64,000 nt of DNA, from the NCBI GenBank assembly GCA_964493715.1, contig CAZBPC010000001.1, forward strand, positions 76,383 to 140,382, given 5' to 3'. The notes under the pieces are model-generated. The model was not told where the DNA came from, did not search any database, and saw only the letters and a list, made by a program, of their open reading frames with translations. Both the position numbers and the translations under genes were made by a program. This DNA is from an uncultured archaeon (GTDB lineage Archaea > Asgardarchaeota > Lokiarchaeia > Sigyniarchaeales > SOKP01). How positions within the stretch are numbered: position 1 is the first letter of the stretch; the number at the start of each line of letters is the position of its first letter. Below, in pieces: positions 38,353-63,218 of the stretch.

Positions 38353-39504
38353 TTATTTTACTCTTTTTTGGACAACTACATGCTCACGGAGCGGTTTTGC
38401 GTGAGGAAATATCGTTTGCACAGCTTGTTCGTTATTTGCCCAGATTGTGGTGCCTTCAATGAAGGAGATTCCAGCAGCGACGACTATTGGTTTTCCCATG
38501 TTGTGAATGGAAGAGAACATTCCTTTACCTGCATGTTGTTTCGCAATCATTACAGTGTCCACATTGCAATGCGTTAATGTTTCTCCAAGCCAAAGTTGGT
38601 ACAAATTTGGAAGTGTCATTATTAGACCAGCAATCTTATCTGTTTCTTTTTCAAAAGCGACATGCACCCACGTCACCACTTTTTCTAGATCACAAGAATT
38701 ATACGCTTCAAGGAATTCTGGAACATGAGTAATATTTCGAGGATCGATGAGTAATTCATAATATCCTGGAGGTATTTGAGCATAGTGATACATCATCTCA
38801 TCAAACCGAGACGATCCTCCCGGGGCGTCAGCTAAAATGGAATAAAATGAGTTTGCAGCGAGATCCAAAATTTCCTCCTTGCGACTAATTAATTCTTCAA
38901 GCATGAGATAACCCAAGCGATATTCAGGTCCAACAATATCCCCTTTTTCCCACGGTTTATCAATAACGTGAACGCAACTATATTTCGATTCTGATTCGTA
39001 TCCTAGTTCATTGAGAAATTCCAAAATTCGGGATTCTGGATGGTTAAAATTCACGCCATTCAGCATTGGGGCATCAAACCCTTCAGTTTGTATTCCTATT
39101 CCCCCTACTAATTTAGGATAATTAATCGGACCGCGCAACCTTCGAAGTTTATGTTCCTTGGCAAACATTTCACACTGTTCCATGAGCACGGCACAAGTTT
39201 CTAAGTCATCAGCTAATAACCATCCGAAAGTGGTTGCCTTTCTAGAATATGATCGATAATCGGGATCGATTTGGCAGATAACGAAACCGGTGGGAATGTG
39301 CTCTTTTAATACGATGAACATGCTCGCACTATTTTCCGGAGAATCGAATTTTTCTTCATAATAATCTAAGATTTCCTGTATTATCCTTGGCTTTAATCGT
39401 TCATCGGGCACGTATAAAAGTAATTCTAAAGCTTGGTGAGCGAGTGAAAACAGTTGAAAAGTGTTGATTTCTAACACGCCAATATTTTGAGCTAAAATTA
39501 TCAT
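38353..39504 (-). CDS. Tandem-GNAT acyltransferase, YghO / bacterial ceramide-synthase-like family
   Basis: TFGW, LRGPIN...G...EGFD.P....FN, LPNLYQ, HAGKG, GTTIWANN; ATG at 39504. Confidence 0.65.
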   Translation of the reverse strand: MIILAQNIGVLEINTFQLFSLAHQALELLLYVPDERLKPRIIQEILDYYEEKFDSPENSASMFIVLKEHIPTGFVICQIDPDYRSYSRKATTFGWLLADDLETCAVLMEQCEMFAKEHKLRRLRGPINYPKLVGGIGIQTEGFDAPMLNGVNFNHPESRILEFLNELGYESESKYSCVHVIDKPWEKGDIVGPEYRLGYLMLEELISRKEEILDLAANSFYSILADAPGGSSRFDEMMYHYAQIPPGYYELLIDPRNITHVPEFLEAYNSCDLEKVVTWVHVAFEKETDKIAGLIMTLPNLYQLWLGETLTHCNVDTVMIAKQHAGKGMFSSIHNMGKPIVVAAGISFIEGTTIWANNEQAVQTIFPHAKPLREHVVVQKRVK

Positions 39505-39525
39505 GTACAATCATATGCATGGATC

Positions 39526-39542
39526 TATTTAAACAAAAAAAA
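39526..39542 (-). promoter_or_regulatory. T-tract plus TATA promoter (leaderless)
   Basis: TTTTTTTTG-TTTAAATA, 22 nt before ATG 39504; the T-run could also terminate the upstream gene. Confidence 0.45.
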
Positions 39543-39547
39543 TTGAT

Positions 39548-42144: not shown

Positions 42145-42248
42145 GAGTCTTTATTTAATGTTATTAGACAATAATAACCATCCAATAAAACCTATCTATA
42201 TAAAGGAAAAATGACAAAATTGGCAATGATGTCATAAATTGTGATTTG

Positions 42249-42262
42249 TTTTTTTTTATATA
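42249..42262 (+). promoter_or_regulatory. T-tract plus TATA promoter (leaderless, divergent)
   Basis: TTTTTTTTTATATA, 26 nt before ATG 42288; no upstream gene on the same strand. Confidence 0.55.
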
Positions 42263-43163: not shown

Positions 43164-44027
43164 TTAAGGAAACAGTTTTATAAGGAGGTTGCTTAATTGA
43201 TGTTGTTCCCAACTATTCTTCGATGCCTTTTTTGCCATGTAATTAGTAAGTAATACTCTTGCTCCTTTGTATGCAATCTTTCTATCTCTATCATTAGATA
43301 CTAGTGTATTCACTTTTTCTTTCACATGGAATTCCATTAGGAACTGAAGCACTCTAAAAAAAACATCGTACATAAGAAGTCTGTCATCCTCATAGATCTC
43401 TTTTCCATTGTGAACAGCATCGTTTCTTGCCTTGTTTAATAGGATCAAATCCTTCTCTAATTCGATGGGAAATTTTAATTCTTTTATCTTGTCTGGCATT
43501 GGTAGTGTATCATCTTTTTCAAATACTCTCTCGTGATATAGCTCGATATTACCGATTAACCGGATCAAGAATCGAAACTCGTCTTCAACTCCTTTTTTTT
43601 CTAAGTTAAGGTAATCAAACATTTTTAACCAAGAATCAATATTAATTACTTGTAATTCCTTTTTAACTATTTTTTCTATAGAATAGACAATATTATTATC
43701 CTCAATATTACTTATTCCATTTTTTTCAATTACTATGGTTCCTTGCACTAACCCTTGGATTCTTCTGGCAATCAACTCGAGTAATTCTTCTCGTTCCTCA
43801 AATTTTTGTTCTAATTCTGATGCATGTAAATCCATTGTTTCACTTTTTGAATTATTATTTTCTTGTAGGTTCTTGATAAAGAAAGGAAACAATTCGATAA
43901 TCTCATCTAATATTATAGCACGCTGGTTTAATATAAGTTGCTTCATCTCTTTTGGGCTGATTTCATTTCGAGAAAATTGGATGATTTTTGTTTTGAGTAA
44001 ATCAAGCTTATCGTGATCAAATATCAC
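43164..44027 (-). CDS. Helical protein with a HEPN-like RxxxxH motif
   Basis: LNKARNDAVH preceded by 'DKIKELK', a pattern typical of HEPN/Abi-like domains. Confidence 0.5.
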   Translation of the reverse strand: MIFDHDKLDLLKTKIIQFSRNEISPKEMKQLILNQRAIILDEIIELFPFFIKNLQENNNSKSETMDLHASELEQKFEEREELLELIARRIQGLVQGTIVIEKNGISNIEDNNIVYSIEKIVKKELQVINIDSWLKMFDYLNLEKKGVEDEFRFLIRLIGNIELYHERVFEKDDTLPMPDKIKELKFPIELEKDLILLNKARNDAVHNGKEIYEDDRLLMYDVFFRVLQFLMEFHVKEKVNTLVSNDRDRKIAYKGARVLLTNYMAKKASKNSWEQHQLSNLLIKLFP

Positions 44028-44074
44028 TTTTTCTGCTAGTCCCTTAAGAATATCTATTGAATTTATGTTCGTTG

Positions 44075-47000
44075 TTATGCGTTCTCTCCTCCTTGTTGGA
44101 TGCTGGTATACTCTTCTAATACCTGAGAGATCTTTTGGTGAGATTTCAATAATTCATGACATGCTTCTTTCTGGGTTTCAACAGAAATCGTAAGTGTTGA
44201 TGGATAAGCAAGATAATTAAATACGTCCTCTTCAGATAAAGGAAACCCATCCATTGTAACTAAACTTTTCAAGAAACTCTCTCTTGATTCAAAAACTCCG
44301 ATTTCGGGGAGTTGTTCTATTCGAGCTTGAATGTTGGAAACATACATCTCGGATAGATCTTGAGCGATGATTAATGCATGTTCGAGATTTCCCTTGTTTA
44401 AATCCCTCTCTATTTGGAACAAGTTCCATTGCAAGATATCAATCAATTCGGAACGAATAATAGCTTTTACACTTTTTACGGGTAGTTTTTTTATCATTGA
44501 TCCTTGAGTTGGGAGGAACTTAAAATCGGGAATGGATTCAGATTGCTGGTCCATTATTTCAAAATCGATGTTGGCAATTGTTTTCCTTCGTGTTTCATAA
44601 TAATCTTCTAAGACTCTATCAAACTTTGGTGAGACTTGGTATGAAGAACGAACGGATTGACCACCACTGGCTTGAGCAGGGTGACTCTCTACCAAGTAAC
44701 CCCTATTGAAAAGGATATCTAAAATCTCATCCCTCATCTTATTCACTATTTTCCTATCTTGATTTATCAATGATAATTTGGAGTATAAAATATTCTTAAG
44801 TTCTTCTCGAATCTTGCTCTTATATAAATTACCTACCGTATGTACGGTTTTCAAACTTTCCAAGAAGGTAATGATTTCAGGGATCAGATGAGAATATTCC
44901 CCCATATCCTTTTCAAACACCGTTTTTTGTGCCCGTTCCAAGATCACTCTTTCAGCATTTTTCATATTAAATCCTTGGGCATCCATGTGAGTGATAATTT
45001 CCTTCCAATCGAGTGAGTCTAATTTCGCTAATTGACTCGAGTCAATTTTCACCGGAAATGGTTGATAAATATCAGTACGTTTCATTATCGCTTCAGGAGG
45101 ACTCATGGTCATTAAATAACGTGTTTGATACAACTCATTACGAGATTTACTATACATGCCCGTTCCATGCATTTCTTCAAGGTTTAACAAGTTTCTAAGA
45201 GTGGATATGTCACGAGGATCGATCGCTTTAAATGCAATGTAATTATCAAGGATGGTGAGCACGTGTGGATGGAGATGATGTACTTGATCGGCAGAACAGA
45301 TGAAGCCAAATCCTTTTTGCAATAATGGAGTCATGAACTTGGATATTTTCCCATATTTCATCGGTTTTTCAAGAAAGTAGACATCAAATATGAGATCCAG
45401 ATGGGGAATAACTAAAAATTTGGGGATATACTGATCATTAAAGTTTAGATAATGAATAAATTTTGCCACCATCAACCATGTAAAAAAGACCTGTTTATTT
45501 AAATCCGATGATCCTGAGATATCTATGATTATGGTTTTATCCGTTTTTAAATACTCTAAAACTGATGAAACAAAATTACTCTCTTCATATTTACTAAACA
45601 AGTATGTAGTATCTTCTGCTGAGAATTCTTCAAGAGTAGCAATGATTGATTCGACGCCGTTTCTTTTTTCGTGGTCTGGTAAATTTTTTACATGAGTTAC
45701 AAGCGTGGAATAATCAACACTAGAGTCATCGTCTTTTTTAATTGAGGAGAGCTTCGAAAGTGAATTTTTAAACAATGTAACCGTTCCCTCATCTTTCTTA
45801 AAGCTCATTTCATATACATCTAACATCAAGTTCAAAAACTCGAGATTGTGGGCATCGTATGAGATCTCAGAATGGATGGGATCGATCGTAATGGTTCTCC
45901 CTAATTTATAGTAAAGAATCGAATTTTCATGTTCCGTTCCCTTAAAAAGCCTGATCATTTTTGACCAATTGCCTGAATAATCAAAAACAATGGAATTTTG
46001 ATTTTGCTTGATGAGTTCAGCAACTATAAGCATTGAAACTGTTTCCCTATTTTGAAATGTTCCATTCGTGATTAAAGAACGTTTAGCTTGAGCTTCTGTG
46101 AATCCAGCGTCAATTTCTCTACCTAAAAACTCAGTATTGATAGTAGTTCCGATATTTATATAACTTTCTAATTGTAATGGAGTATTAAATTCCGCAGCAA
46201 TTTTAGTTTCAATTCCTTTCTTGAATTCATTAGCAATGGTGATGAAAGAAGTTAATGTGGTACCTTGTGTGATCATGTAAGGTAAGTAAGAACCTTTTAA
46301 CTGAGTAAACCTGGTTTTGAGTGAACTCACGGTAAGGGCAGATTCCAAGTGATTTTTTTTGAGTGGTTTTATATTAAAAGTAGAATAATACGAATGGAAT
46401 GAAGTTTTAAGGATTATCGCATTCTCCCGAAGCTGAGATTCAAGGTCTTGAAAATCAGCAGTAGAGACGTTTTTCACACGTTTATACACGTGAGTAGTAT
46501 AAATTCCTACTGTTTTCCATATGCCGGCTCTTTGTATCATCCACTTGTCTTCTTCTCGCTTATCTCTTATCTTATTCATGTGATATTGTTTTTCTGATCG
46601 ACTCAAGTATTTTTTTCCTAATTTATAGAATCGATAGTAAGAAATTGCGCCGGTAATTACCGTGGTTCCAAAGGATATTCCTTGAGACATGAGTGAGCCA
46701 TAGAATTTGCTATCATATGCATATACAGGTAATTTAACTTCATCCACGCTAAATGCTTTCAAACCTCCCAATAAATTATCTCCTATCTGGAAAAAAATCG
46801 TCTCAGGCGCTCGTGAAAAGCGATAGAAACGAATATCACTAAAAGGATTTATGGGAATGATCTCAGGAGAATTAAAATTCTTTTTTGAAAAAAGCTGAAA
46901 CAAGGGTTCTTTCCACCAGCCCATGAGAATCAATCCTATCACTATACTAGATGATAAAATTGTCAGAATCCCATTTTTCCAAACCGCAGAAACCAATCCA

Positions 47001-47860
47001 CCAACAACTATTGCAGTGATTAAGGTCATTATTGTTTTGGAAATAATTTTCATCGTTATTTTGATGTTATTCTTTATAGGATTACTTGGAGGAATATCTT
47101 GTTTGAGAAATATGGTTCTCAAGGCTTGTACGGCTTCATTTTTCTGCAATAGAGTTATCTTGTAATGATGAAAGTTAGGGACAAAATCCGAATTGATAGT
47201 CAATGTTTTTGAGTGCAATGTTTCTAAGAATCGATTGAATCTATTTTTGGAAAAAATACCCTTAATCTCGTGAGATACTGCAAAATAGATAATAGTCCGA
47301 AATGGTGTCATTCTTGCCCCGTTTATCTCTTTTTTCAATGATGATATTTGCGTGGATGGGGTTAAGATGGGCTGTTGTATTACCTGGTAGGTAATGCTTT
47401 GAAAACGAGTTGAAAGCACTCTGATAAATTGCGTGATATTAGCATTAACATTTTCAGGCAACACCTCTACCCGAAAAATTCGTATTCCCACTGTGAGCAA
47501 ATCTTCTCGATTAGTAAAAAAGATGGAATTTTGATCCTTGTTCAATTGCCAGAATGATAAAGATTTAAAAGGATTAAACGGTTGAGTAAAAAAACTTCGA
47601 GTTGAAAATATTAAAATGAAGACTATCATGAAAAACACGCAAAGAGGAACGATTTTGAACAAGTCTGATGATAATAGATAACCATGTATTGCAATGACAG
47701 TGGTTAGTCCTAATAATACCCCTCGTTTAATCCGTACTGTATTTTGAGTAACATCTTTTTTAACGGGGCTTAAGGGCCAGATGTTAAGATACTTCTTGCT
47801 TTCATTTTCGTCTTCTATTTGGATTATTTTTGGTTTTAAATATTCAGCGTAATTTACCAT
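44075..47860 (-). CDS. Large membrane protein with a degenerate HerA/FtsK/VirB4-like ATPase domain
   Basis: Two [2TM + alpha/beta] N-terminal units; motif order LITNGTFQNRE (Walker A position), IVFDYSGNW, IDP, IIIDIS, LVIPHLD (Walker B position), GFGFICSADQ..L...V......IAF. Confidence 0.6.
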   Translation of the reverse strand: MVNYAEYLKPKIIQIEDENESKKYLNIWPLSPVKKDVTQNTVRIKRGVLLGLTTVIAIHGYLLSSDLFKIVPLCVFFMIVFILIFSTRSFFTQPFNPFKSLSFWQLNKDQNSIFFTNREDLLTVGIRIFRVEVLPENVNANITQFIRVLSTRFQSITYQVIQQPILTPSTQISSLKKEINGARMTPFRTIIYFAVSHEIKGIFSKNRFNRFLETLHSKTLTINSDFVPNFHHYKITLLQKNEAVQALRTIFLKQDIPPSNPIKNNIKITMKIISKTIMTLITAIVVGGLVSAVWKNGILTILSSSIVIGLILMGWWKEPLFQLFSKKNFNSPEIIPINPFSDIRFYRFSRAPETIFFQIGDNLLGGLKAFSVDEVKLPVYAYDSKFYGSLMSQGISFGTTVITGAISYYRFYKLGKKYLSRSEKQYHMNKIRDKREEDKWMIQRAGIWKTVGIYTTHVYKRVKNVSTADFQDLESQLRENAIILKTSFHSYYSTFNIKPLKKNHLESALTVSSLKTRFTQLKGSYLPYMITQGTTLTSFITIANEFKKGIETKIAAEFNTPLQLESYINIGTTINTEFLGREIDAGFTEAQAKRSLITNGTFQNRETVSMLIVAELIKQNQNSIVFDYSGNWSKMIRLFKGTEHENSILYYKLGRTITIDPIHSEISYDAHNLEFLNLMLDVYEMSFKKDEGTVTLFKNSLSKLSSIKKDDDSSVDYSTLVTHVKNLPDHEKRNGVESIIATLEEFSAEDTTYLFSKYEESNFVSSVLEYLKTDKTIIIDISGSSDLNKQVFFTWLMVAKFIHYLNFNDQYIPKFLVIPHLDLIFDVYFLEKPMKYGKISKFMTPLLQKGFGFICSADQVHHLHPHVLTILDNYIAFKAIDPRDISTLRNLLNLEEMHGTGMYSKSRNELYQTRYLMTMSPPEAIMKRTDIYQPFPVKIDSSQLAKLDSLDWKEIITHMDAQGFNMKNAERVILERAQKTVFEKDMGEYSHLIPEIITFLESLKTVHTVGNLYKSKIREELKNILYSKLSLINQDRKIVNKMRDEILDILFNRGYLVESHPAQASGGQSVRSSYQVSPKFDRVLEDYYETRRKTIANIDFEIMDQQSESIPDFKFLPTQGSMIKKLPVKSVKAIIRSELIDILQWNLFQIERDLNKGNLEHALIIAQDLSEMYVSNIQARIEQLPEIGVFESRESFLKSLVTMDGFPLSEEDVFNYLAYPSTLTISVETQKEACHELLKSHQKISQVLEEYTSIQQGGENA

Positions 47861-48715
47861 TTACCAATACCTCCATTTTTTCATGGCATTATAATATAGA
47901 TATCCAAGTAACAGAATGCTAACTAAGAAGAAAATCATGAGCATTCCAACCGCTTCCAGCGAGTTCGGCATGATGATTGTTTCTGCAATCAATAAAGATT
48001 CGAAAATTCCCAATAAGATGATGAATCCCAATATAACCAACCATCCGATTCCTTTTTTAGAAGCTACGTAATTCGGATTATCTTTCAATCTTCCTTGAAC
48101 AGGTATCTTGCGATTATCATTGCGATTAAGGGCGGACCTTATCTTCTTTAGCTGTAATGAAGTTTCTAATACGTCCCCATTCATTCCGTTCTGTAAATGA
48201 GAATGGAGTTCTCTTTCTCTTTTTTCAATCTCATCAATGAGGAGATCTCTCACCATTGAAGAAGAATCATTTGGAGTTTTTCTTGAAAATAAGTTAAAAG
48301 ACCTAGTATTCGAATAATCTTGTCTTCTTAGCGTTCGGGTAAAGTTATTAAATTCTGGTATCCTTATCTTGCGAATATCATAATAAAGCGCGATAGCATC
48401 TTTTAAATGGTTTTTTGGTAGATTTCCATCTGATTTGAAAAAGAGCGTTTCAATGATTTTAACCCTATTGATCATATCAGCAGGGATTAGATTGATTCCT
48501 AAATGGACGATATAGCGATTTATTCGTTCCAAGAAATAATGGATAAACTCATCCTTTCTTGGATCTCTCCTACCAATTTCTAATTTAATACCTATCATAT
48601 CCACATGATTACTAATAAGTTGCAAAGTGGTAGCTGAAAGTTTAGCGTGATTACCACTCATTATACATCTTTCCACCAAAGTTTCAAATTTATTATCCAT
48701 TAAATTCATCATCAT
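47861..48715 (-). CDS. Hypothetical protein with two C-terminal TM helices
   Basis: Long ORF translationally coupled to both neighbours; coiled-coil region then a hydrophobic hairpin. Confidence 0.7.
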   Translation of the reverse strand: MMMNLMDNKFETLVERCIMSGNHAKLSATTLQLISNHVDMIGIKLEIGRRDPRKDEFIHYFLERINRYIVHLGINLIPADMINRVKIIETLFFKSDGNLPKNHLKDAIALYYDIRKIRIPEFNNFTRTLRRQDYSNTRSFNLFSRKTPNDSSSMVRDLLIDEIEKRERELHSHLQNGMNGDVLETSLQLKKIRSALNRNDNRKIPVQGRLKDNPNYVASKKGIGWLVILGFIILLGIFESLLIAETIIMPNSLEAVGMLMIFFLVSILLLGYLYYNAMKKWRYW

Positions 48716-52262: not shown

Positions 52263-54776
52263 GTGTCACTAAAAAAATATGTCAACCTCCAAGAACCTTT
52301 ATTAGACGAACCACCAGAAATACTTAATTTCATAAAAGATGAGCGACTTCAACGGGTCCTTTTAGAACACCAAATTTTTACATTACGATCCATTCAGAAA
52401 GAAGCAATCGCGAAAGGATTATTTTTTCGAAAATCTTTCTTGGTTTGCGCTCCGAGCGGGAGTGGGAAGACTCTTATAGGCGAGTTATGTGCGGTTCACG
52501 CCATTTTCAATAATTTTGGTAAATCAATATATCTAGTACCTTTTAAGGCTTTAGCATCCGAAAAATATCTCTCATTCAAGCACGATTATGAGCGTTTCGG
52601 TATTCGCGTGGAACTGTCCATAGGAGACCAAGAACCTGAAGAAAAAGCTTTGGAAGATGCTGACCTAATCATTACCACCTATGAAAAAATGGATTCTATC
52701 CTCCGGAATTTTCACGACAAGCAATGGATTTCAGACATAACAACTATAGTGATTGATGAGATACATGTTATTGACGAGTCGGATAGGGGTCCTCGCTTGG
52801 AATCACTTATCGTCAGACTCAACGAATTCTTGCATCAACCTCAAATCATAGGACTTTCTGCCACCATTGCAAACCCTGAGTTTTTCAATCAATGGCTTTC
52901 TTCACTTGGCAACAAGATGATTTTAATCAAGTCGGACGTTCGACCAGTGCCGCTTCATTATCAGATTGAAATTTCCCGCAATAAGGATTCTACACTAAAA
53001 AAAATCGTAAATGATACCTTATCTCAAAATGGTCAAGTATTGGTGTTTGTCAACAAAAGAAAGTTAACTCAAAACATTGCCCTCAATCTAAGAATGCTGG
53101 TAAAAGGTCATCTAAGTCCTGAAGAACTGAATGAATGCAAAAAAGCGGAAAGTAGCCTTTCATCGCTTCGAGGAGGCATTCTTGACTTGAGAAAGTCAAT
53201 TAAGCACGGTGTTGCATTCCATCATGCGGGCTTGCTTCACAAGGAGCGTAAAGTGGTAGAAGAAGCATTTCGAAAACACTTCCTTAAATTAATAATTTGT
53301 ACTACAACCTTGTCGGCGGGTATTAACCTTCCCGCTAGGGTTGTAGTTTTAAGAGATTTCAAGAAATATACCACTTCAGGGCATAACGTCAAGAATTTCG
53401 AAGATCTCCACGAAAATGGAGATGGCTTTTCCTATTTCAAGCCATTTTCGGCCAATGAGGTATTTCAAATGTTGGGAAGAGCTGGTCGACCAGGTTTGGA
53501 TTCAATAGGACATGGGATCATCCTTGGATGTGATGTAAATGAGAGAGAATGGATTGAAGATCACTATTTTTCTGTAGATCCAACCGAAGAAATTGTCCCT
53601 AAATATAATAATTTAGGTTCCGGGTTAAATACCATCCATACTCTCAAGGAGCAAGTTCTACTAAGAATTTACGAAGAAGAAAACATCTCGATGGAACAGT
53701 TAAAGAATTTCTTTAAGAAAACGTTCTTTTGGTTTTGTATTCAAGATAAAATGGGAGATGATGCCATCCCAATAGAGCAGTTATTAATGATCGAAGAAAT
53801 ATCTCCAAAAAACATTTTGAGATTACATTCCCAACCCGAAAAAATAAAAACCATCAGGAAGCGATCTTATCCCATAAAAATATCAAGATTCACCAAAGAG
53901 GGCATTGGGGGATATGTGAAAACCGATTACGGGGTTCATAACGTCCAATTTGATCTTGATAGAGGAATTGAATGTTCTTGTGGATTTGAGAACGGAATGT
54001 CAGATGGATATGCAACCACCAAGTTCTCATTTGAGTTTTGCGACCACGTACTTGCCTTTTTACTCTATATCTTTGAAATTCCCGACTCTAACTTTCAGAA
54101 ACACGTGGAAGATGTTATACCCCAGTGTTTAAAGACCCAATACATATTGAATTACCTTTTTGAGAAGGGATTAATAATCAAAAATGAGAATGGTACCATA
54201 AAGTGCTCGCAATTTGGAAAATTAATTATACGTTTATACTTGTATCCCGTGTCAGGTGTATTAATTCGATCCAAGTTAGAAAATTTCGAGATATCTTCCT
54301 ATCAAGATATGATAAAGAGCGCCTTTGATATTCTTCGCGCTGAAGCACGCGTTAGAGATTACCACTTGTTACAACCGCTACTCGAATGGACAGATGAGGA
54401 GCCCGTAGACAGCATCATCCAGAAGCACAATATCATGGCAGGTGACCTGTACAGCTTGAGAGATAATTTAGAGAGAATTATCACTTTCATGGGAATCATT
54501 GCCATTCACTTGGCAGATACGGGAAGTGACCTTCAAGATAATTTAATTAGAGTAGCAGAAATGGCAGAAACATTAAAGATTAGAATCCATTATGGCGTGA
54601 GGGAAGAACTATTTGATCTTGTCATGCGTTTGGATAATGTTGCTCGAGTGAGAGGGCGTATTTTATTCGATGCTGGATACCATACTTCAAATCAAGTGAA
54701 AAAGGAGATACCCTCTGTTCTTCACAGAAAAACGGGAATAAGTCTAATAATATGTAAAAAATTATCAAGACTATAA
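52263..54776 (+). CDS. Ski2/Hel308-like SF2 helicase with an inserted SWIM-type zinc finger
   Basis: APSGSGKT, VPFKALA, TYEK, DEIH, LSAT, FHHAGL, TTTLSAGINLP, QMLGRAGRPG; insert ECSCG...FCDH; start probably GTG 52263 (or ATG 52239), not 52158. Confidence 0.88.
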   Translation: MSLKKYVNLQEPLLDEPPEILNFIKDERLQRVLLEHQIFTLRSIQKEAIAKGLFFRKSFLVCAPSGSGKTLIGELCAVHAIFNNFGKSIYLVPFKALASEKYLSFKHDYERFGIRVELSIGDQEPEEKALEDADLIITTYEKMDSILRNFHDKQWISDITTIVIDEIHVIDESDRGPRLESLIVRLNEFLHQPQIIGLSATIANPEFFNQWLSSLGNKMILIKSDVRPVPLHYQIEISRNKDSTLKKIVNDTLSQNGQVLVFVNKRKLTQNIALNLRMLVKGHLSPEELNECKKAESSLSSLRGGILDLRKSIKHGVAFHHAGLLHKERKVVEEAFRKHFLKLIICTTTLSAGINLPARVVVLRDFKKYTTSGHNVKNFEDLHENGDGFSYFKPFSANEVFQMLGRAGRPGLDSIGHGIILGCDVNEREWIEDHYFSVDPTEEIVPKYNNLGSGLNTIHTLKEQVLLRIYEEENISMEQLKNFFKKTFFWFCIQDKMGDDAIPIEQLLMIEEISPKNILRLHSQPEKIKTIRKRSYPIKISRFTKEGIGGYVKTDYGVHNVQFDLDRGIECSCGFENGMSDGYATTKFSFEFCDHVLAFLLYIFEIPDSNFQKHVEDVIPQCLKTQYILNYLFEKGLIIKNENGTIKCSQFGKLIIRLYLYPVSGVLIRSKLENFEISSYQDMIKSAFDILRAEARVRDYHLLQPLLEWTDEEPVDSIIQKHNIMAGDLYSLRDNLERIITFMGIIAIHLADTGSDLQDNLIRVAEMAETLKIRIHYGVREELFDLVMRLDNVARVRGRILFDAGYHTSNQVKKEIPSVLHRKTGISLIICKKLSRL

Positions 54777-55372: not shown

Positions 55373-55430
55373 GAATATAAATCCTAATAGATCTATATAA
55401 ATAACAAAAAAACAAAAAAAGAATTTTCAA

Positions 55431-55960: not shown

Positions 55961-58150
55961 TCACCTCGTTTTTTTATGAGGTGTATACAAATTTTTAATA
56001 ATAAATACTAATTCTTCGGGAACATCAATTGATATGGTTCGAAACCAGTTTTGATCCCCCCATTCGGAAATCCTCTGCTTGAGCAATCGCTTTTCCCCCT
56101 CAAACTGTTCGGTGAAATCCTCGAAGTCAAATACGAATAAGACGAGTTTCCTTGCTTGTCGAAGCCGTATCAAATCCTTCTCTGATATGGACACGCTTTC
56201 TTTAATAAACGTGCGAGGATCGATAATAAATAAAGAAATTTCAGAAAAAAGATCAATTCTCCTTCCAGTTTCCTGCAAACCAAGGATGATACCTTCTTTT
56301 TGTAATTTTTTACGTAAACCAAATTTCCCCGGCACATCCTTGCTAATCAATATTTCTGGATCTGGAATTCTCAATGAGGTGCTGGATATAGGATGCTCAG
56401 GTTTCGAAGAAGAAAAATAAGATACCAAGGTTTCTTGGTTTGGAGATCGAGGTTTTGATGGTGGCAAATATTTAATTTTACTAGTCACCTTTTCAATTTT
56501 TTGTTTGAATTTTACTTCTTTCGTATCTCCCATATCATTTTCCTGATAATTAATTGGTCCTTTTTTATTAGTTTCCTCTGTAGACACCTTAAGATTATCA
56601 TTCATTTTTTGTATTTTATTGAGTGCAATTCTTAAGTAAATTTCATCATTAGTCTCCTTGGTATACAACAAGATGACCTTACCTTCTTTTTGACGAGCAG
56701 TTCGTCCCTTTCTTTGGATATACCTGATTTCTGATGCCACAATATCATAAAATACCACTATATCGCATTCAGCGATATCCAATCCTTCCTCCGCTACATT
56801 TGTAGCTACGAGAACATTAAATATGCCTTCCTTGAAGGACTTCAGAATCTCCAGTTGTCTTTTTTGACTCATTCCCTTATCTTTTTTTGACTTGGTCGCT
56901 TGCCCCACGAATCGAGTGGGCTTGATCATGGATTCTTTTTCCAAACGTGAAGTGATATTTTGGATAGAATCCCTCAATTTTACGAATACCAAGATTCTTG
57001 AATCGGGATTTTCATGTAATTGATCGATTAGTATCTTTTTTAAAACAATATATTTAGGATGGATCAAACCTTCTGGATATTCGGATTCATGATTTTTTAG
57101 TTCAAGATAAATTCGACGTATTCGGTTATCTCCTGCTAGATTCTGATTTGCCTTGCTACTGTTCTGCTTTCGGGCCTCTTTCATTAATTTTTCTAAATAC
57201 GTGAGTAGGATATCGAGTCCTTGTTGTTCGATGAGTTCTAACATGTGATATAGAATGAGTCCTTGGGCATTAACTGAAATAACACCATAGACACTCTTAT
57301 CCCCAGAGGACATCTGCTTGATTAATTCTGTATTGAGCCTTAACAGGTCTTTTCTTGTTATCTTTTTTACCAACGTTTCTCCTTTTTTTTCGATATGCCC
57401 CATTTGGGAGAGATATTGAAGTCGTTCTTCCACCAAGCGATTGATAACGATCAGAGCATCTTCCATTAATTCTGTCATATCCACTCCGATTTTAAATATA
57501 TTCATTGGTTGTAAGTAGTTTTTCACATCTTCATCCTTTCGGGTTCTCACGTGGACATTGTTTTTATCAATATGTAATAATTGACATAGTTCATTAATGC
57601 GTTCCTTGGAAGATCCCGGTGAAGCGGTAAGTGCTAATATGGTACCGTCGGGGTTTTGGTCTTGAAAGGTGTCTGCAATGAGTCCATAGGGATAATCGCC
57701 ACTTGCGTGGTGTGCTTCATCAAAGATGATAAGGCAAGTGTTTTTGAGGTCATAATGTTTTGCAACTAAATCATTTCTTAGAGTTTGAGGGGTATAAAAT
57801 AAGATCTGATGTGCTTCAAATAATTTAGGTCTTTCTTCTGATGGATTTTTCCCAGTAAGCGTAATCATAGAATCATCGGGAATTGCGAGGAATTGAGCAA
57901 ATGATTCATGATGCTGATTAATTAAAGGACGTGTAGGTGCTAGAACAATAATTTTTGAATTTCTGGGATAGGATTGGAGTGTTTCTGCTACTACCAATAG
58001 TGATATGATGGTTTTTCCCAGACCAGTAGGGATGACCACTAATGAGTTTCTATTTACACACTTTTTCGCAATTTCTACTTGGTATTCTCGAAATTGGATT
58101 TTATTTGTTTCAAGGAATCTAAAGGGACTCATTTCGGTCGCACGGGCCAT
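55961..58150 (-). CDS. Hef/FANCM/Mph1-like SF2 helicase with a degenerate C-terminal nuclease-like region
   Basis: REYQ, PTGLGKT, LAPTRPL, DEAHH, LTASPG, FVGQA, ATNVAEEGLDI, IQRKGRTAR; ATG 58150 with GGAGG SD; no ERCC4 GD...ERK motif. Confidence 0.88.
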   Translation of the reverse strand: MARATEMSPFRFLETNKIQFREYQVEIAKKCVNRNSLVVIPTGLGKTIISLLVVAETLQSYPRNSKIIVLAPTRPLINQHHESFAQFLAIPDDSMITLTGKNPSEERPKLFEAHQILFYTPQTLRNDLVAKHYDLKNTCLIIFDEAHHASGDYPYGLIADTFQDQNPDGTILALTASPGSSKERINELCQLLHIDKNNVHVRTRKDEDVKNYLQPMNIFKIGVDMTELMEDALIVINRLVEERLQYLSQMGHIEKKGETLVKKITRKDLLRLNTELIKQMSSGDKSVYGVISVNAQGLILYHMLELIEQQGLDILLTYLEKLMKEARKQNSSKANQNLAGDNRIRRIYLELKNHESEYPEGLIHPKYIVLKKILIDQLHENPDSRILVFVKLRDSIQNITSRLEKESMIKPTRFVGQATKSKKDKGMSQKRQLEILKSFKEGIFNVLVATNVAEEGLDIAECDIVVFYDIVASEIRYIQRKGRTARQKEGKVILLYTKETNDEIYLRIALNKIQKMNDNLKVSTEETNKKGPINYQENDMGDTKEVKFKQKIEKVTSKIKYLPPSKPRSPNQETLVSYFSSSKPEHPISSTSLRIPDPEILISKDVPGKFGLRKKLQKEGIILGLQETGRRIDLFSEISLFIIDPRTFIKESVSISEKDLIRLRQARKLVLFVFDFEDFTEQFEGEKRLLKQRISEWGDQNWFRTISIDVPEELVFIIKNLYTPHKKTR

Positions 58151-58154
58151 TTTA

Positions 58155-58742
58155 TTATCCTCCTTTAATGTATATTTGATAGCCATCAATGTTAACGTGG
58201 GAAGGATCACGGTTAGTTTTTTTAAACATAGCAATCTCAGTTCCTAATCTTATAGCTAAGGGTGAAGGGTATAGTAGAAAATTTTCCCCCGAGTTGAAAA
58301 AATAGGGATAGTTCTTGTATAAACGCACAATTTTCTTCGTGAGCTGAGAGTTAGCAATCTGAATATCAAAACCCTTTCCAATCTTCACTCCTTGGAAATA
58401 AAGAACCATGTCACTTAAATCATTTGCTATTTCTTGAGAGATCCATACTTCCTTCCTCTCACCATGCCAAACTTGTTCATTTCTGGGCCAGATGGTTAAA
58501 TAATTTTTGCCATTCATCCATCTTTTCTCTAGTTGATATCCCTTAAATGAATTTAAGAATAAATCTTGAAACTGTAAGATGAGTTCCATGATAGATTCTG
58601 TTTCTTCACTTGAGATGTCCCATTGAACGGCTAATTTGCTAAAATTAAACGATTTATTCGAATCTTTATCAAATTTCTTAAGATTTAAAATGAGATTCTT
58701 CAATCCTTGAAGAGTAGCCAAAAATTGTGTTCCTTTTTGCAT
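58155..58742 (-). CDS. Hypothetical protein (possible winged helix), first gene of the Hef operon
   Basis: FNFSKLAVQWDISSEETE HTH-like segment; 4 nt upstream of the Hef start. Confidence 0.6.
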   Translation of the reverse strand: MQKGTQFLATLQGLKNLILNLKKFDKDSNKSFNFSKLAVQWDISSEETESIMELILQFQDLFLNSFKGYQLEKRWMNGKNYLTIWPRNEQVWHGERKEVWISQEIANDLSDMVLYFQGVKIGKGFDIQIANSQLTKKIVRLYKNYPYFFNSGENFLLYPSPLAIRLGTEIAMFKKTNRDPSHVNIDGYQIYIKGG

Positions 58743-58764: not shown

Positions 58765-58779
58765 TATTTAAAAAAAAAA
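58765..58779 (-). promoter_or_regulatory. T-tract plus TATA promoter (leaderless)
   Basis: TTTTTTTTTTAAATA, 23 nt before ATG 58742. Confidence 0.6.
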
Positions 58780-58837
58780 CTTTACTAAATAACACTTCGA
58801 AAAAGGCAATGACAATTATAAAAAAGTGAAAAAAATC

Positions 58838-61759
58838 TCATTTTTTGAATTTATATATCTTTTTATCTGCTTGCTTTCTTCCAGCCGTGTAGATGATTGT
58901 TCCCGGTACTGAAATGAATCCAATGATGAGACCTACTGCCCATAAAAATTCGCCTTCGGATAGATTGAATTCAGGTGGACTTGGATTCCCAGTTAAAGAA
59001 ATTTGCGTTTCTCCCATTAATATCGATTCAGATGCATAACCATCATTTATGTAAATTAATATTCGGTATGAATCCGTATTAAGTGGCGTGTAAAGGAGTG
59101 AAAATATCGTATATGTCAAAAAATCCTTCTGAGTAAATTCAATGTTTTTAAAGAACACCTGATCCTTATATATCTCGATATAAGCATGACCTTCAAATAA
59201 TGGAGTCTGCCCGGTGCCAAATTTTTGAGACGCGTTGATCGTAATCAATAAGGTCTTAGAAGTATTTGTCCATGACACGCTTTTTATTAATTCATAGTAG
59301 GTACTAATAAAGATCTCTTGAGTAGCTATCTTATCCAAACCTTCATATACAGAGATGTATCCTGAAGCTAAAGGATAACAGGAAGGATCCGCAGGAATGT
59401 AAATTGATTTTTCATAAGTTCCGTCTGGAAGTACATCTAACACACTTGAACCTGCGAATTCGGATTCAAATTTTACAGTGGCATAAGGTCCGAATTTTTC
59501 CAATACCAGGTTACCTAATTCTACCGATAAATGACAGTATTCACCTAGTAGTATAGGTCCATCTTGAGTCGCATCTATTCGCACATCATCATTTCTTGCC
59601 ATTTCAAATATCCATCCAAAAATACATGGCTCTATTTGTTCCCTCTCTGAAGTGAGAAAAAATTGGTTAAATTCGTTCGAATAAATCGACTGGATTAGAG
59701 ATTGCGTTTGAGTTATGTTAAATTGAACGGAAAGGTCATATAAACTCGCAATTTTATAGCAATAATAGATATTTTTAATATTAGTATAATTGAGGTTCGC
59801 TTCTACAAATTGCTGAACTTTTACATGGTTGAGATCCGGCTCTCCTAATGCATTTAGGATATATAATGCTTGATAGGTGTTTTCCAAGGCTTTTTCTAGA
59901 GTATTATCGTGGAATGGCAATAAATAAATAAAATTAGCAGTTTCTACCAAGCTTCGAGAAATATGGGTAATTAGAGCATCTGCATCCATTAAAAGATCTC
60001 GTAATGGACCTACATTCAACTCCTTGGTAAGAAGCTCTAAGGACCGAATAGCATTATAGGAGTTCTCGAATACTATAGTTTTTGCTTGCCTTTCGTCAGA
60101 AAATATCATGTCTTGCACTGACATACAAAATCCCCCGAACAACTGAGATTTAGAGGGATTTAAGTATTGCGCGTTAGTGATCCCATGAATCACGGTACTC
60201 AAGTTTATATCGCTCTTTAGATCATCCATTTTAAATAGTATCTCTAACACGTTTAATGCATCGAGCATCCATTCTAGTGAAAAATAATTTCTCACTTCAG
60301 GAATGATATTATAATCGCTAAATGTTATAAATTCTATAGGATGGGATCGAAACCATCCCCTAGTAATATCCATATCAGTACTTCCCAAGAATCCATAGCC
60401 ATCCACTGAATCGAAATACTTTATAGTAGCACTAATCCAATCGTATAATTGTTGTATCGGAAGTTCACTTAGACGGTTCATAACATCATAAGAACCTATC
60501 AATGACTGTAATTGAGCTAATGATTGGTAGTCGTTAGTTAGAGGAGCATATCCTCCTTTTGATTTACAAAAGGAAATAAAAGATGCCACTTGAGCCTTTT
60601 CTAATAGGCTAAGAGAATTAAGCTCACTCGTTCCTTCTAAAGATCGAACAATCTCAAAAGTATCAATGAGTTCATGATAAGGAACCGTGCTGGATGATAC
60701 CCATCCTCCCAAGTGAGTTCTTCCGTCCAATATGAATGAGATTAATTGAGTTCTGTCAATTCCTGTAAATCCCATTATATCAGATAATTCCAATCCGATT
60801 GCACTAGCTACGATATTACTTTCATTGAGTGGATATGGAAATTGAGATACAGAGAAAAAATTCTTGTCTGAATCGTATAATGCTTCCAAATAACCATAAA
60901 AATCTTGTATGTCGATAGTTTGTTCCATTCCAAGCACTTCCAATGACTTTATTGCATAAAACGATGAACGTAAGTTAGGATCAAATGCATCAATAGAATT
61001 AAAGGATATGTCCAGATCATTATAAAACCCCCCACTCCCGGCTTGTAATGAATTTAAGTACACTATCAGATCATCTATCACATTTTGATAGGGCGTCCAA
61101 TCGCTCAATAACATATCTAAAGTGATGAGCGCATAGTAGGTATTATCGGCAGTTGATATTAAATATTTTGGCTCTAAATTCATGTCAAAGGGTCTTCCAA
61201 TGAACCCTGAAGTGATGGGATTATAACAGCTCCAGATAAAATCAATGAGTTTCTGGGAATCAATCGATCCTAATTGATATAGCATGTTCAGGGAAAGAAG
61301 TCCGTAGCAGGTGACTTCAAGCACGCTGGTCAAGGGATAAAATTTTTCCTCAAAATCGACATCCAAGTATCTATAAGTTGTATCATCAATGAAGCAAGAG
61401 TTCAACGGCATGCAATGACTCATTATATATTGTCCAACTGCAACTTCATCCACTTGCGAAAGTTTTCCAAGAGCCCGTAATGTAGAAAGTGCTTGATATG
61501 TAGCTTGAAGGGTAGGTTGGTAATAACTTGAGAAGTAACCATTAGCATTATATTCAGCCGTCTTTTCGGTCAAAATATCCTCCAGAAATTCCATAGTAGC
61601 ATCAGAAGTGAGAGGAGAGAACTCTTGCTGGTCAAATGAGGAATATTTACCCCGCCCAACTGATTGTTGCCCCGCTACATTGTAAAAGATTGAAAATAAG
61701 AGTGTACAAATGGTACATATCAACAATAGACCCATGCTTACCTTCATGTATAATTTCAT
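58838..61759 (-). CDS. Secreted/membrane-anchored prenyltransferase-squalene-cyclase (alpha/alpha barrel) repeat protein
   Basis: N-terminal signal or TM, C-terminal TM; repeated 'F...(C/Q)....GGF...........T(Y/F).A...L..L' units. Confidence 0.72.
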   Translation of the reverse strand: MKLYMKVSMGLLLICTICTLLFSIFYNVAGQQSVGRGKYSSFDQQEFSPLTSDATMEFLEDILTEKTAEYNANGYFSSYYQPTLQATYQALSTLRALGKLSQVDEVAVGQYIMSHCMPLNSCFIDDTTYRYLDVDFEEKFYPLTSVLEVTCYGLLSLNMLYQLGSIDSQKLIDFIWSCYNPITSGFIGRPFDMNLEPKYLISTADNTYYALITLDMLLSDWTPYQNVIDDLIVYLNSLQAGSGGFYNDLDISFNSIDAFDPNLRSSFYAIKSLEVLGMEQTIDIQDFYGYLEALYDSDKNFFSVSQFPYPLNESNIVASAIGLELSDIMGFTGIDRTQLISFILDGRTHLGGWVSSSTVPYHELIDTFEIVRSLEGTSELNSLSLLEKAQVASFISFCKSKGGYAPLTNDYQSLAQLQSLIGSYDVMNRLSELPIQQLYDWISATIKYFDSVDGYGFLGSTDMDITRGWFRSHPIEFITFSDYNIIPEVRNYFSLEWMLDALNVLEILFKMDDLKSDINLSTVIHGITNAQYLNPSKSQLFGGFCMSVQDMIFSDERQAKTIVFENSYNAIRSLELLTKELNVGPLRDLLMDADALITHISRSLVETANFIYLLPFHDNTLEKALENTYQALYILNALGEPDLNHVKVQQFVEANLNYTNIKNIYYCYKIASLYDLSVQFNITQTQSLIQSIYSNEFNQFFLTSEREQIEPCIFGWIFEMARNDDVRIDATQDGPILLGEYCHLSVELGNLVLEKFGPYATVKFESEFAGSSVLDVLPDGTYEKSIYIPADPSCYPLASGYISVYEGLDKIATQEIFISTYYELIKSVSWTNTSKTLLITINASQKFGTGQTPLFEGHAYIEIYKDQVFFKNIEFTQKDFLTYTIFSLLYTPLNTDSYRILIYINDGYASESILMGETQISLTGNPSPPEFNLSEGEFLWAVGLIIGFISVPGTIIYTAGRKQADKKIYKFKK

Positions 61760-61988
61760 TTTTGTAACCTAAAAATATTGCATTTAACCCTAACTGAATC
61801 TATAAGTATTTAAATAAAAAAAGAAAAAAACTCTCAACATTACTTAAATTAATGTTATCTAATCAGATTATGTTTAATCCTAATTTTGATAAGAAAAAGC
61901 GAAAAAATGGAAAACCCGATTGACACATGAAAAATAAGGTAAAAATAGAAAGAGTAAAAAATGTCAGTCTCCAATTGGAGACCAATCA

Positions 61989-63218
61989 TCATGGTCCTAC
62001 CACCTGCAGGGGGGGACCTTTTGGATAATAGTAATTACGCACCTTGATGGTAATCTTCTCGCTACCCGGTGTTCCTAACGGAATGATCATTTTTGAACTG
62101 GAAAACTCGTGTTCATAATCTATTGGTGATTTATTTAATAAAATAAATGATCCTAAATTGGTTCTAACAGCATGCAAGTAATATTCAAAGCTTTCATGAG
62201 GATTAAAGATTTTCTGAGCGGCCCCCAATTTAACCTCCATTAGCGATTGAACCAAGGGCATCTCCTCCTCTTGCTCAATTAACCCGAACTTGATCATGAT
62301 TTTCCGGAGCAGTTCAGATGATTTCACCAAGCTTTTAAACCCTTCCACTCGCAAGTGATTGAACACATTCTGTTCCACTTGATGTTGAATGGTACTCATT
62401 TGTATCCCAAGATGAGAGCAAATAGTATTTACTTTTAATCGTTTCTGCTTGTCACATAACGCAACAATGCTACAAACGACCCCAGCAATAACATCATCTT
62501 TCGTGCATTTAATAGTTTCCCAGAAAGTGTACATTATTCTTTTAGCGGTATCGTAAAACTCCATGTTCATTCCAAATTGTTCTGTTATCTGTAATATTTT
62601 TTGTAGAATGTAATTCTTCCGATCTCGCTTTTGGTAATACGGGATAAAGTTCTTCACTTGGAGCTTGAAGGCGTTAAATTCTTTCTTGGTTATTCGGGAA
62701 ATCTCAAGGAGTTCTTGTTCATTAATCCCCTTGCAATTTAGCTTAAAATGAAGGTAAATGGTAATTGGTACCAACTTCTCCGGACTCCTGAATTTCGTTC
62801 CAGGTTGTAACACTTTTCTAATGGCACTAAATTGTTTGAAAATCGGTTGTAATTCAGATAATGGAAGGGCTAAACCTGATAAGATCCTCCTAATCTCTTT
62901 TTGAGCTTTAATCTTCACGTCTTCCTCACGATCTCGCTCTGAATCAAGTTTTTGCCATTTTTGCAATTGAACTGATTGAGCTTTGGTAACTCGTTCTTTA
63001 TAAAATCCTATTTGAGTTTTTCCACGAGGAGCGTTTTGAATTACGGCTTCATCATAAGGATGATGGTATTCAAAGACTAAACTTGAGAGAATTATTCCAC
63101 AATTCGCACATACGTACCCTTCCCGGGTTTGTTTGATGTCCGTGGAATTGCACGCATCACAAGCGGAAATATCATTGTCTACTGAATACTCTTCTTGCTG
63201 CCATTTTTTTATTACCAT
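61989..63218 (-). CDS. Divergent transcription initiation factor B (TFB/TFIIB) paralogue
   Basis: N-terminal Zn ribbon CDAC...GYVCANCG; two cyclin-like repeats (EIRRILSGLALP...RSPEKLVPITIY; ILQITEQFGM...ICSHLGIQMSTI); C-terminal extension. Confidence 0.8.
   Translation of the reverse strand: MVIKKWQQEEYSVDNDISACDACNSTDIKQTREGYVCANCGIILSSLVFEYHHPYDEAVIQNAPRGKTQIGFYKERVTKAQSVQLQKWQKLDSERDREEDVKIKAQKEIRRILSGLALPLSELQPIFKQFSAIRKVLQPGTKFRSPEKLVPITIYLHFKLNCKGINEQELLEISRITKKEFNAFKLQVKNFIPYYQKRDRKNYILQKILQITEQFGMNMEFYDTAKRIMYTFWETIKCTKDDVIAGVVCSIVALCDKQKRLKVNTICSHLGIQMSTIQHQVEQNVFNHLRVEGFKSLVKSSELLRKIMIKFGLIEQEEEMPLVQSLMEVKLGAAQKIFNPHESFEYYLHAVRTNLGSFILLNKSPIDYEHEFSSSKMIIPLGTPGSEKITIKVRNYYYPKGPPLQVVGP

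Follow-up and report, generated by a model that had tools for sequence, protein, structure and literature searches.

A conserved pyrimidine-rich element at the BRE position marks the promoters of a linked gene block in Lokiarchaeia, with a divergent TFB-like protein as candidate reader

Introduction

What sets the promoters of one block of genes apart from the housekeeping promoters of the same archaeal genome, and which protein could read the difference? The question is raised by a 64,000-nt stretch of a Lokiarchaeia genome (the window), which covers C1:76383-140382 of a 3.68-Mb assembly in 160 contigs (31% G+C). A preliminary description of the window proposed that the promoters of a 25-kb block carry a T-tract in place of the purine-rich B recognition element (BRE) upstream of the TATA box, and that a TFB paralogue encoded at the end of the block serves the linked genes much as an alternative sigma factor would. 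Alternative TFBs are known, and how their promoters are told apart is mostly unclear. The BRE is read by the recognition helix of the C-terminal helix-turn-helix (HTH) of TFB, which makes both the sequence at that position and this helix the obvious places to look.

Here we report that the T-tract is the local form of a conserved pyrimidine-rich element, TTTTTYC, that occupies the BRE position in about 15 linked transcription units, and that the TFB-like protein of 409 amino acids (aa), P0001, combines a TFB fold with a changed recognition helix and is a candidate reader of the element. Positions without a prefix are those of the window. G000 denotes the genome analysed, other G numbers the genomes of relatives, L numbers fetched loci and C numbers contigs.

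Results

A T-tract abutting the TATA box recurs in the window

The 15-mer TTTTTTTTTTAAATA (T10AAATA) lies at 49534-48, 52143-57 and 58765-79, each time on the minus strand, and the first base of an ATG follows the three copies after 22, 29 and 23 nt (gaps of 21, 28 and 22 nt), just as the preliminary description had it. In 100 dinucleotide shuffles its mean count was 0.05, and no shuffle reached three. Genome-wide there are five copies: the three in the block, one at C1:154310(+), 14 kb past the window end, and one at C38:16593(-). Because their flanks are mutually unrelated, the copies are not a dispersed repeat. The variant sites listed earlier beside the 15-mer are all present as described, including one outside the block, and the map of open reading frames (ORFs) bears out that five of the ten window sites (42197-, 42246+, 49585+, 52143- and 52223+) occupy divergent positions. 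The sites are as follows; match scores refer to the position-weight matrix (PWM) introduced below, and mismatch counts to orthologous promoters of relatives.

39526..39543, minus strand: promoter of the 383-aa gene; ATTTTTTTTGTTTAAATA, that is, ATTTTTTTTG joined to TTTAAATA; ATG 21 nt past the TATA box; exact motif at the G008 orthologue.
42197..42212, minus strand, divergent: promoter of the 410-aa gene; ATTTTTCCTTTATATA, the top PWM match of the whole genome (21.8 bits); at most one mismatch in 2 of 3 relatives.
42246..42262, plus strand, divergent: promoter of the ThiF/E1-like gene; T9ATATA, with an ATG 25 nt on.
49534..49549, minus strand: promoter of the membrane-protein operon; A-T10-AAATA, 21 nt to the ATG; at most one mismatch in 4 of 6 relatives.
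49585..49601, plus strand, divergent: motif variant TTTTTTCTTTTTAAATT, facing a 340-nt stretch without an ORF of at least 100 aa.
52143..52158, minus strand, divergent: promoter of the helix-hairpin-helix (HhH) protein gene; A-T10-AAATA; same form in G006.
52223..52238, plus strand, divergent: promoter of the Hel308-like helicase gene; AATTTTTCTTTATAAA; at most one mismatch in 4 of 5 relatives.
55394..55420, minus strand: weaker variant before an 86-aa ORF; T7GT7GTTA-TTTATATA; two mismatches here and in G006.
58765..58780, minus strand: promoter of an operon that comprises the 195-aa gene and those for the Hef-like helicase and a DUF1922 protein; G-T10-AAATA, with the ATG 22 nt on; at most one mismatch in 8 of 8 relatives, at a spacing of 22-24 nt (22 nt in 7 of the 8).
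61807..61830, minus strand: promoter of the 973-aa surface protein gene; T7CT7A-TTTAAATA; at most one mismatch in 2 of 3 relatives.
10272-90, plus strand: similar site outside the block.

Downstream of the plus-strand site at 49585-601, the stretch at 49600-49940 includes a segment of higher G+C that may be structured. Rfam gave no match in window 36000-64000, which includes this stretch; it could possibly hold a small ORF or an unknown RNA.

Promoters elsewhere look different. A-rich BREs, which the preliminary description had reported at housekeeping promoters, were confirmed for psmB, which lies to the left of the block, and for the 15498 gene, and several of the 16 tRNA promoters have one by eye. 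Although the genome is rated 100% complete, ARAGORN detected just these 16 tRNA genes, probably because many others are split or interrupted by introns and hence escape it.

The combination is concentrated in one region of the genome

Runs of T are common in AT-rich DNA, as had been cautioned from the start: the genome holds 2119 runs of eight or more, and the block, with 15 against 14.3 expected, is not enriched for them. That caution stands for the runs themselves, but not for their combination with a TATA box. From 3279 crudely called ORFs we collected 1777 sites matching TT[TA]A[TA]A[TA]A on the sense strand between -100 and +40 of the starts. Only 29 sites genome-wide had at least seven T in the 8 nt before the TATA match; six lie in the block as originally drawn, and 11 within C1:115908-154317. 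When labels were permuted 2000 times among the 1307 genes with a TATA site, the largest count per 40 kb was five, against the 11 observed, and at a threshold of at least six T the observed 14 compare with a null maximum of eight. The T-tract/TATA combination is thus concentrated in this region rather than equally frequent elsewhere, with 11 of 29 sites in one 40-kb span. The cluster spans C1:115.9-154.3 kb and therefore continues for about 17 kb after the window end, beyond the TFB-like gene.

The same shift appears in base composition and spacing. In the 8 nt before TATA-like sites the mean is 3.3 A and 2.9 T elsewhere in the genome, and 1.5 A and 5.1 T in the region. Among sites with leaderless spacing, at least six T precede the TATA box at 9 of 15 in the region versus 33 of 421 elsewhere (Fisher p 1e-6, with the threshold chosen post hoc). 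Less directed searches returned little: a de novo expectation-maximisation motif search of 2218 upstream regions produced weak AT-rich profiles alone (information content about 3 bits), base profiles relative to the ATG gave a Shine-Dalgarno-like G peak alone, and 8-mer counts were uninformative.

Relatives reveal the element as TTTTTYC at the BRE position

Comparison with relatives, the conservation check that the preliminary description had called for, found both the motif and the gene set kept in syntenic loci. Distant relatives carry AATTTTTTCTTTAWATA-like sequences before the orthologous genes, and 82 non-redundant sites with a downstream ORF gave the consensus A(0.59)-T-T-T-T-T-Y-C(0.82)-T-T-T-A-W-A-T-A. 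The degenerate pattern TTTTTYCTTTWWAWA gave 40 exact matches in the relatives' loci, where the reversed control gave 2, and allowing one mismatch raised these counts to 125 and 42; two flanking 20-kb loci (L024 and L027) held 0 and 1 motif sites.

Conservation follows the genes. With at most one mismatch, the motif precedes the relatives' copies of the 195-aa gene (8/8), the 252-aa gene (8/8), the 125-aa gene (7/7), the 95-aa gene (6/7), the 177-aa gene (3/3), the FEN1-like gene (4/4), the 81-aa gene (4/4), the Hel308-like gene (4/5) and the 266-aa operon (4/6). In nearly all genomes it precedes the genes that open a transcription unit; operon-internal genes lack it, and it is absent upstream of the TFB-like gene, both here and in all six relatives (0/6). 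In nine aligned orthologous upstream regions of the 195-aa gene (alignment A3), conservation is limited to the motif and the ATG. Since the element is kept in the orthologous promoters of relatives, it represents a conserved promoter class and not AT-richness or terminators; we are highly confident that both the element and the regulon that it marks are real.

The geometry is that of a core promoter. The distance from motif to ATG peaks twice, at 21-24 nt and again at 45-54 nt, and positions 35-37 are enriched for T-T-A in the leaderless (n=42) and the leadered (n=40) class alike, which places it 22 nt past the TATA box. TATA box and initiator stand to each other as expected for archaea, so that TTTTTYC falls at the BRE position; given an initiator-like TTA at this distance, many of the mRNAs would be leaderless.

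The conserved C is what this genome's lineage has largely lost. Position 7 is C in 35 of 53 sites of distant relatives and in 2 of 17 in G000, G006 and G001, and because the C is mostly replaced in these three genomes, a plain T-tract is what had been seen. The preliminary description was right that a distinct sequence sits in place of the BRE, and it had before it a local, degenerate form of TTTTTYC.

A PWM trained on the 82 sites of the distant relatives only (G000, G006 and G001 excluded) recovered the region in the genome that it had not seen. At 16 bits or more it matched G000 54 times, and 10 of these matches fall in C1:114-157 kb, a span that makes up 1.2% of the genome; a cut-off of 18 bits leaves 14 matches, five of them in the region, which also holds the genome's two best. 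Across whole genomes of the genus, the exact pattern likewise clusters on contigs with the TFB-like gene (9 of 13 sites on one contig in G015, 5 of 8 in G002). In five genomes of other families, in which the TFB-like gene was not found, the motif and control counts totalled 22 and 23, with no clusters.

The block encodes a TFB-like protein with a changed recognition helix

The candidate reader is the TFB paralogue that had been described as closing the block:

61989..63218, minus strand: P0001, divergent TFB-family gene, 409 aa; Zn ribbon, two predicted cyclin folds, altered HTH and C-terminal extension; own promoter A-rich.

P0001 is too divergent for routine annotation. A Pfam scan of the protein gave no TFIIB match (no PF00382 at E <= 0.01), the NCBIfam TFIIB model reached 20.6 bits against a cut-off of 384 (E 1.9e-4), and phmmer against PDB sequences returned nothing meaningful (best E 1.6). 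Profile and structure comparisons were more telling. Aligned by hhalign with five of the genome's seven canonical TFBs, the P0001 family matched with 97.6% probability (E 3.5e-12); the 260 aligned columns begin at the Zn ribbon and take in both cyclin folds. The ribbon cysteines C20, C23, C37 and C40 (CxxC...CxxC) are invariant in 37 family members and align to the ribbon of the genome's own TFBs. An AlphaFold model (mean pLDDT 68.6, about 80-90 in the core) had TFIIB chains as its top Foldseek matches, with TM scores of 0.64-0.72 to TFIIB/TFB cores; the match to the Pyrococcus woesei TFB of a BRE/TATA complex (1d3u_B) had a TM score of 0.72 and a root-mean-square deviation of 3.8. By these profile alignments and the predicted fold, P0001 belongs to the TFB family and has its Zn ribbon as well as two predicted cyclin folds.

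Its recognition helix differs where the DNA contact would be made. The near-invariant M-S-T-I-Q/H-x-Q of the P0001 family aligns to TEVT-x-R-x-R, which is invariant in five of the genome's own TFBs; both TFB arginines are replaced, and the replacement is conserved family-wide. Profile alignment, Foldseek and helix alignment thus agree with the earlier proposal of a TFB paralogue with an altered BRE-reading helix. The reader/linker region is likewise unlike that of TFBs and conserved within the family. A C-terminal extension of about 100 residues is modelled with pLDDT below 50, and its family-conserved end reads Y-x-x-P-K-G-P-P, with P402 and P403 invariant. The genome encodes seven canonical TFBs (on C23, C11, C61, C2, C106, C67 and C43), each with two TFIIB repeats, and one TBP, with an acidic N-terminal tail of about 35 residues. 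A predicted complex of the TBP and P0001 cores scored 0.00 against a mark of 0.32, a value that comes without controls and that we count neither way.

At least 219 members of the P0001 family occur in Asgard metagenomes, and a source names some of them TFIIB/Brf1. Of 66 genomes sampled from the window's own family, 52 gave a match; a second family gave a weak one in 1 of 6 genomes, and the others gave none in 6. Several full-length copies, short fragments and copies with in-frame stops occur in G067 (6 matches), G076 (4) and G087 (6), and also in G057 and G086, which suggests that the family has been duplicated and has decayed repeatedly. A viral contig collection scanned with the family alignment gave 24 pattern matches, none of them confirmed.

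The block extends beyond the window and carries recombination and repair genes

All proteins of C1:105-169 kb were compared by tblastn with 20 loci around homologues of the TFB-like gene. C1:114.7-156.9 kb, about 43 kb from window position 38353 to past the window end, is syntenic in nine relatives at 35-65% protein identity, and its flanks are not. The block accordingly does not end at the TFB paralogue, as had been thought, and continues to about C1:156.9 kb, beyond the window. In another genus the gene order is shuffled and a second, partial block is present; in the closed genome G095 the set is split. The G+C content of the region is 0.34-0.35, against 0.31 for the genome. The window part of the block holds, besides P0001:

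38353..42144, minus strand: left block end; genes of 385, 313 and 410 aa without a family match.
43164..49512, minus strand: operon of 266, 284, 1261 and 260-287 aa without a family match; three products with predicted membrane segments; synteny kept.
49943..52123, minus strand: 726-aa HhH protein; HhH at residues 94-148 and one predicted membrane segment.
52158..54776, plus strand: Hel308-like helicase (Pfam/NCBIfam), the sole close Hel308 of the genome.
55961..58234, minus strand: Hef-like superfamily 2 helicase, 757-aa ORF; the Hef model matches the helicase part only; two paralogues elsewhere.
58838..61759, minus strand: 973-aa protein with N- and C-terminal hydrophobic segments and a prenyltransferase-like alpha-alpha toroid domain.

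Pfam and NCBIfam also identified a ThiF/E1-like enzyme in the block and, beyond the window, a RadB/KaiC-like ATPase, a RadA-like recombinase, a FEN1/XPG-like nuclease, an RPA-like OB-fold protein and an Arf-like GTPase. Many of the remaining proteins could not be assigned to a family. RadA, FEN1, RPA and Hef have further copies elsewhere in the genome. The RadA-like paralogue (L009:3361-4614; C1:143743-144996) has a second, C-terminal HhH (residues 357-407) beside the usual N-terminal one and, at 74-90% identity in relatives, is better conserved than its neighbours. For the Hel308-like gene the start candidates are an ATG at 52239, directly after the TATA box, and a GTG at 52263; the latter would fit a leaderless transcript from near 52260.

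The gene content of the preliminary description survived in part. Its two repair-type helicases are the Hel308-like and Hef-like proteins, and its membrane HhH protein has both the domain and a predicted membrane segment. Its acyltransferases found no counterpart, as no such domain was detected in the block proteins scanned, and its VirB4/HerA-like protein is unconfirmed. The latter assignment concerned the 1261-aa protein: clusters annotated HerA/DUF87/CedB in the Atlas came up at 0.89-0.90, a lead only, and the candidate was dropped, with no Walker A, no Walker B by a simple regular expression and no Pfam match at E <= 5.

Two local departures from the shared arrangement were noted. An ArsR-like HTH gene (DUF7347; L009:55-597, C1:140437-140979) adjoins the TFB-like gene; it looks like a local insertion, because it has no counterpart in the relatives' syntenic loci. 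In G017 (L025, C17:120786-140785) the 1261-aa and Hel308-like genes are left as fragments (matches of 189 and 182 aa), which indicates that the block has partly decayed in that lineage.

Discussion

P0001 as a candidate reader

The co-location of element and TFB paralogue suggests a mechanism. The pyrimidine element A-TTTTT-Y-C, abutting TTTAWATA where canonical promoters hold a purine-rich BRE, would be a sequence-specific recognition site that separates block promoters from housekeeping ones and through which the block genes could be switched together. P0001 would replace canonical TFB on the TBP-TATA complex and contact the upstream element with its altered HTH; as its own gene appears to be driven by a canonical A-rich promoter, the arrangement would amount to a two-step cascade akin to that of an alternative sigma factor. 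We infer that transcripts start as predicted, that the genes are co-regulated, and that the trigger may be DNA damage or DNA exchange; the 24 sequencing-run entries listed for this material were all DNA-type metagenomes, with no RNA run among them.

The place of the element, the ribbon that P0001 retains and the rewritten yet conserved helix all speak for P0001 as the reader, and two further lines of evidence link it to the element. The motif clusters around the P0001-family gene in G015, G002, G017 and G016, around all three copies of it in G008, and around two in G076. The second is a co-variation: the clade of G000, G006 and G001, whose motif is mostly without the C, carries Q, Q and Q-N in the recognition helix at places held by K/R, H and R/K-R/K in other members, so that one clade lost the C from the motif and three basic or His residues from the helix. 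The earlier proposal of a sigma-like TFB for the linked genes thus stands as far as the shared, conserved element at the BRE position is concerned; what ties P0001 to it as the reader is this co-location and the one co-variation.

Several observations weigh against assigning the element to P0001, or against reading its distribution too simply. The co-variation of helix and motif reflects just one event in evolution; in an intermediate clade (L066), the only four promoters that could be read have mixed bases at position 7. The exact motif does not exceed the control in some genomes that have the gene (3 vs 4 in G012, 1 vs 2 in G005, 4 vs 3 in G000). Some 44 PWM matches lie outside the block, most without promoter geometry or a downstream ORF, and ten genes downstream of such matches have unrelated functions (radical SAM, peptidases, ABC permease, CDF transporter, C2H2, HEAT and three family-less). 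In the closed genome G095 some 720 kb separate the P0001 homologue from the main part of the block, and motif counts there are close to the control. G085, which is 99% complete, has a motif-rich block (14 sites vs 2 in the control in 19.5 kb); no P0001-family gene was found in its assembly, where the family profile matched one canonical TFB only. Finally, the conserved block proteins include other candidate readers, namely small Zn-ribbon proteins of 105, 125 and 174 aa and several family-less proteins.

The outside PWM matches were considered as further regulon members and taken as chance, given the unrelated functions of the ten genes scanned. The gap in G085 can be placed precisely: at L081 (G085:C31) 8207-12119 the 252-aa gene and the 973-aa gene are direct neighbours with 300 nt between them, both have a T-tract or motif promoter, and the TFB-like gene that stands between them in ten other genomes is missing. 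G083 and G037 likewise gave no P0001-family match, but their contigs break at the expected place.

On balance, P0001 may read the element, though on the genomic evidence we put this somewhat short of an even chance. The best explanation as a whole, a conserved regulon with a special core promoter, P0001 as the likeliest reader and a two-step cascade, we consider evenly poised between right and wrong. The boldest form of it we advance only tentatively: a second, orthogonal core-promoter class in one family of Lokiarchaeia, with a pyrimidine 'anti-BRE', TTTTTYC, read by a divergent TFIIB-fold factor instead of TFB.

Alternative explanations

The element could define the regulon and yet be read by another protein, either a repressor that blocks TFB or a recruiter that compensates for a poor BRE, with canonical TFBs initiating and P0001 in some other role or simply a further member of the gene set; such a reader might be encoded in the block or outside it. 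G085, G095 and the small Zn-ribbon and family-less proteins of the block all lend themselves to this reading, as does the ANTTTC motif of the Sulfolobales damage response, which is reported to be read by Orc1-2 and not by a TFB (PMC6061795). Yet the element abuts the TATA box exactly where TFB contacts DNA, and the one DNA-reading helix known for that position is changed in P0001 while being invariant within its family. The P0001 gene is, moreover, the sole conserved gene of the block that never carries the element, and the neighbouring ArsR-like HTH gene is not conserved in relatives. We regard a different reader as unlikely, though a serious contender.

A mobile or semi-autonomous element with its own promoter style and TFB, or a descendant of one, would account for the multi-copy state of the P0001 family with its fragments and in-frame stops (G067, G076 and G087), for the three blocks of G008, for the non-syntenic flanks and for the higher G+C content; TFB homologues are, besides, reported in Asgard viruses and mobile elements (10.1101/2021.07.29.453957; PMC13700489). 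The block itself does not look like such an element. No integrase match falls in the region (those to PF00589 are on C33 and, weakly, at C1:20866), no tRNA gene lies at its borders, PHROG at E <= 0.001 gave one weak SieB-like match among 10 block proteins, and no P0001 relative was confirmed among viral contigs. The block also carries the genome's sole close Hel308, and its gene order is shuffled and split among genera in the manner of a chromosomal neighbourhood. This origin therefore seems improbable.

That the T runs have no specific reader, being terminators, AT-rich by-products or histone-excluding tracts, is very improbable: half of the window sites (5 of 10) follow a same-strand gene whose transcript they could end, and T8+ runs are common, but such runs are not themselves enriched in the block, the other five sites are divergent, the C is kept at one position in 82% of the relatives' 82 sites, the element stands in fixed register with the TATA box and the initiator-like TTA between unconserved flanks, and the clustering exceeds all 2000 permutations.

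Comparison with known systems

If P0001 does read the element, its nearest functional counterparts are other TFB paralogues and TFIIB-like factors. TFB3, part of the damage response of Sulfolobales, is a truncated TFB without the cyclin core, whereas P0001 retains the ribbon and both predicted cyclin folds. As with TFB3 and Orc1-2 on ups, ced and tfb3, a T-rich motif ending in C lies near the core promoters of a DNA-exchange or repair gene set, and in both cases the set includes a non-canonical TFB paralogue. The Sulfolobales motif, ANTTTC, is reported to lie 23-55 bp upstream of the ATG and to be bound by Orc1-2 (PMC6061795). The element here differs: it is A-TTTTT-Y-C, fused to the TATA box, and its consensus A stands more than five bases before the conserved C. 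The ANTTTC hexamer is not contained in the common motif form and is matched by variants such as ATTTTCC only. Pfam scans found no Orc1/Cdc6 domain in the block proteins, to which this search was confined. The genes here are also contiguous over about 43 kb, unlike the Sulfolobales damage regulon, and are known from sequence alone.

The TFB2 regulon of Sulfolobus acidocaldarius, the best studied of the recent cases, offers a second comparison. TFB2 is reported to drive a cell-cycle transcription wave, and its promoters to have near-identical TATA boxes, BREs that appear similar to those of TFB1 promoters and a different spacing (10.64898/2026.09.06.749720). The two cases share a TFB paralogue tied to a defined promoter subset, here by co-location. 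They part at the BRE position, which in the block promoters is quite different and pyrimidine-rich, and in P0001 being too divergent for the Pfam TFIIB model.

Relative to canonical TFB (1d3u), the Zn ribbon, the two cyclin folds (predicted in P0001) and the HTH closing the second repeat all align with P0001. Its helix has Q for R, it has the extension of about 100 residues ending PKGPP, and its candidate target is pyrimidine-rich rather than purine-rich. A divergent TFIIB fold with a C-terminal extension is also found in the eukaryotic Brf1, Brf2 and Rrn7/TAF1B, and Brf chains appear at Foldseek ranks 24-40; TFIIB/TFB chains nevertheless match P0001 better than Brf does, and this archaeon has a single RNA polymerase and a single TBP. 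TFB homologues that are thought to redirect host transcription are also encoded by Asgard viruses and by mobile elements without a classification (10.1101/2021.07.29.453957; PMC13700489). For P0001, no relative was found in the viral contig collection, and no viral or integrase genes were found in the block. None of the compared systems, as far as these sources describe them, pairs a full-length TFB whose helix is rewritten with a sequence of its own kind at the BRE position. No description of the P0001 family, the motif or the gene set was found in the open-access literature searched.

Significance

The cis side of this system is unusually clean: a short conserved element at the BRE position, shared by about 15 linked units and missing from housekeeping promoters, with a variant specific to one lineage and, in P0001 with its rewritten DNA-reading helix, a candidate reader that suggests itself. 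How a TFIIB-fold factor selects promoters thereby becomes directly testable. The gene set is a lead in its own right, since conserved Asgard paralogues of recombination and repair proteins and membrane proteins, probably used together, point to a damage response, DNA exchange or ploidy-related recombination. Should P0001 prove to be the reader, these archaea would have a sigma-factor-like switch for recombination, repair and DNA-handling genes, and P0001 would be the first archaeal TFB paralogue with a clearly different DNA code. It would also provide a parallel, in the closest relatives of eukaryotes, to the TFIIB-like factors that are split among eukaryotic promoter classes.

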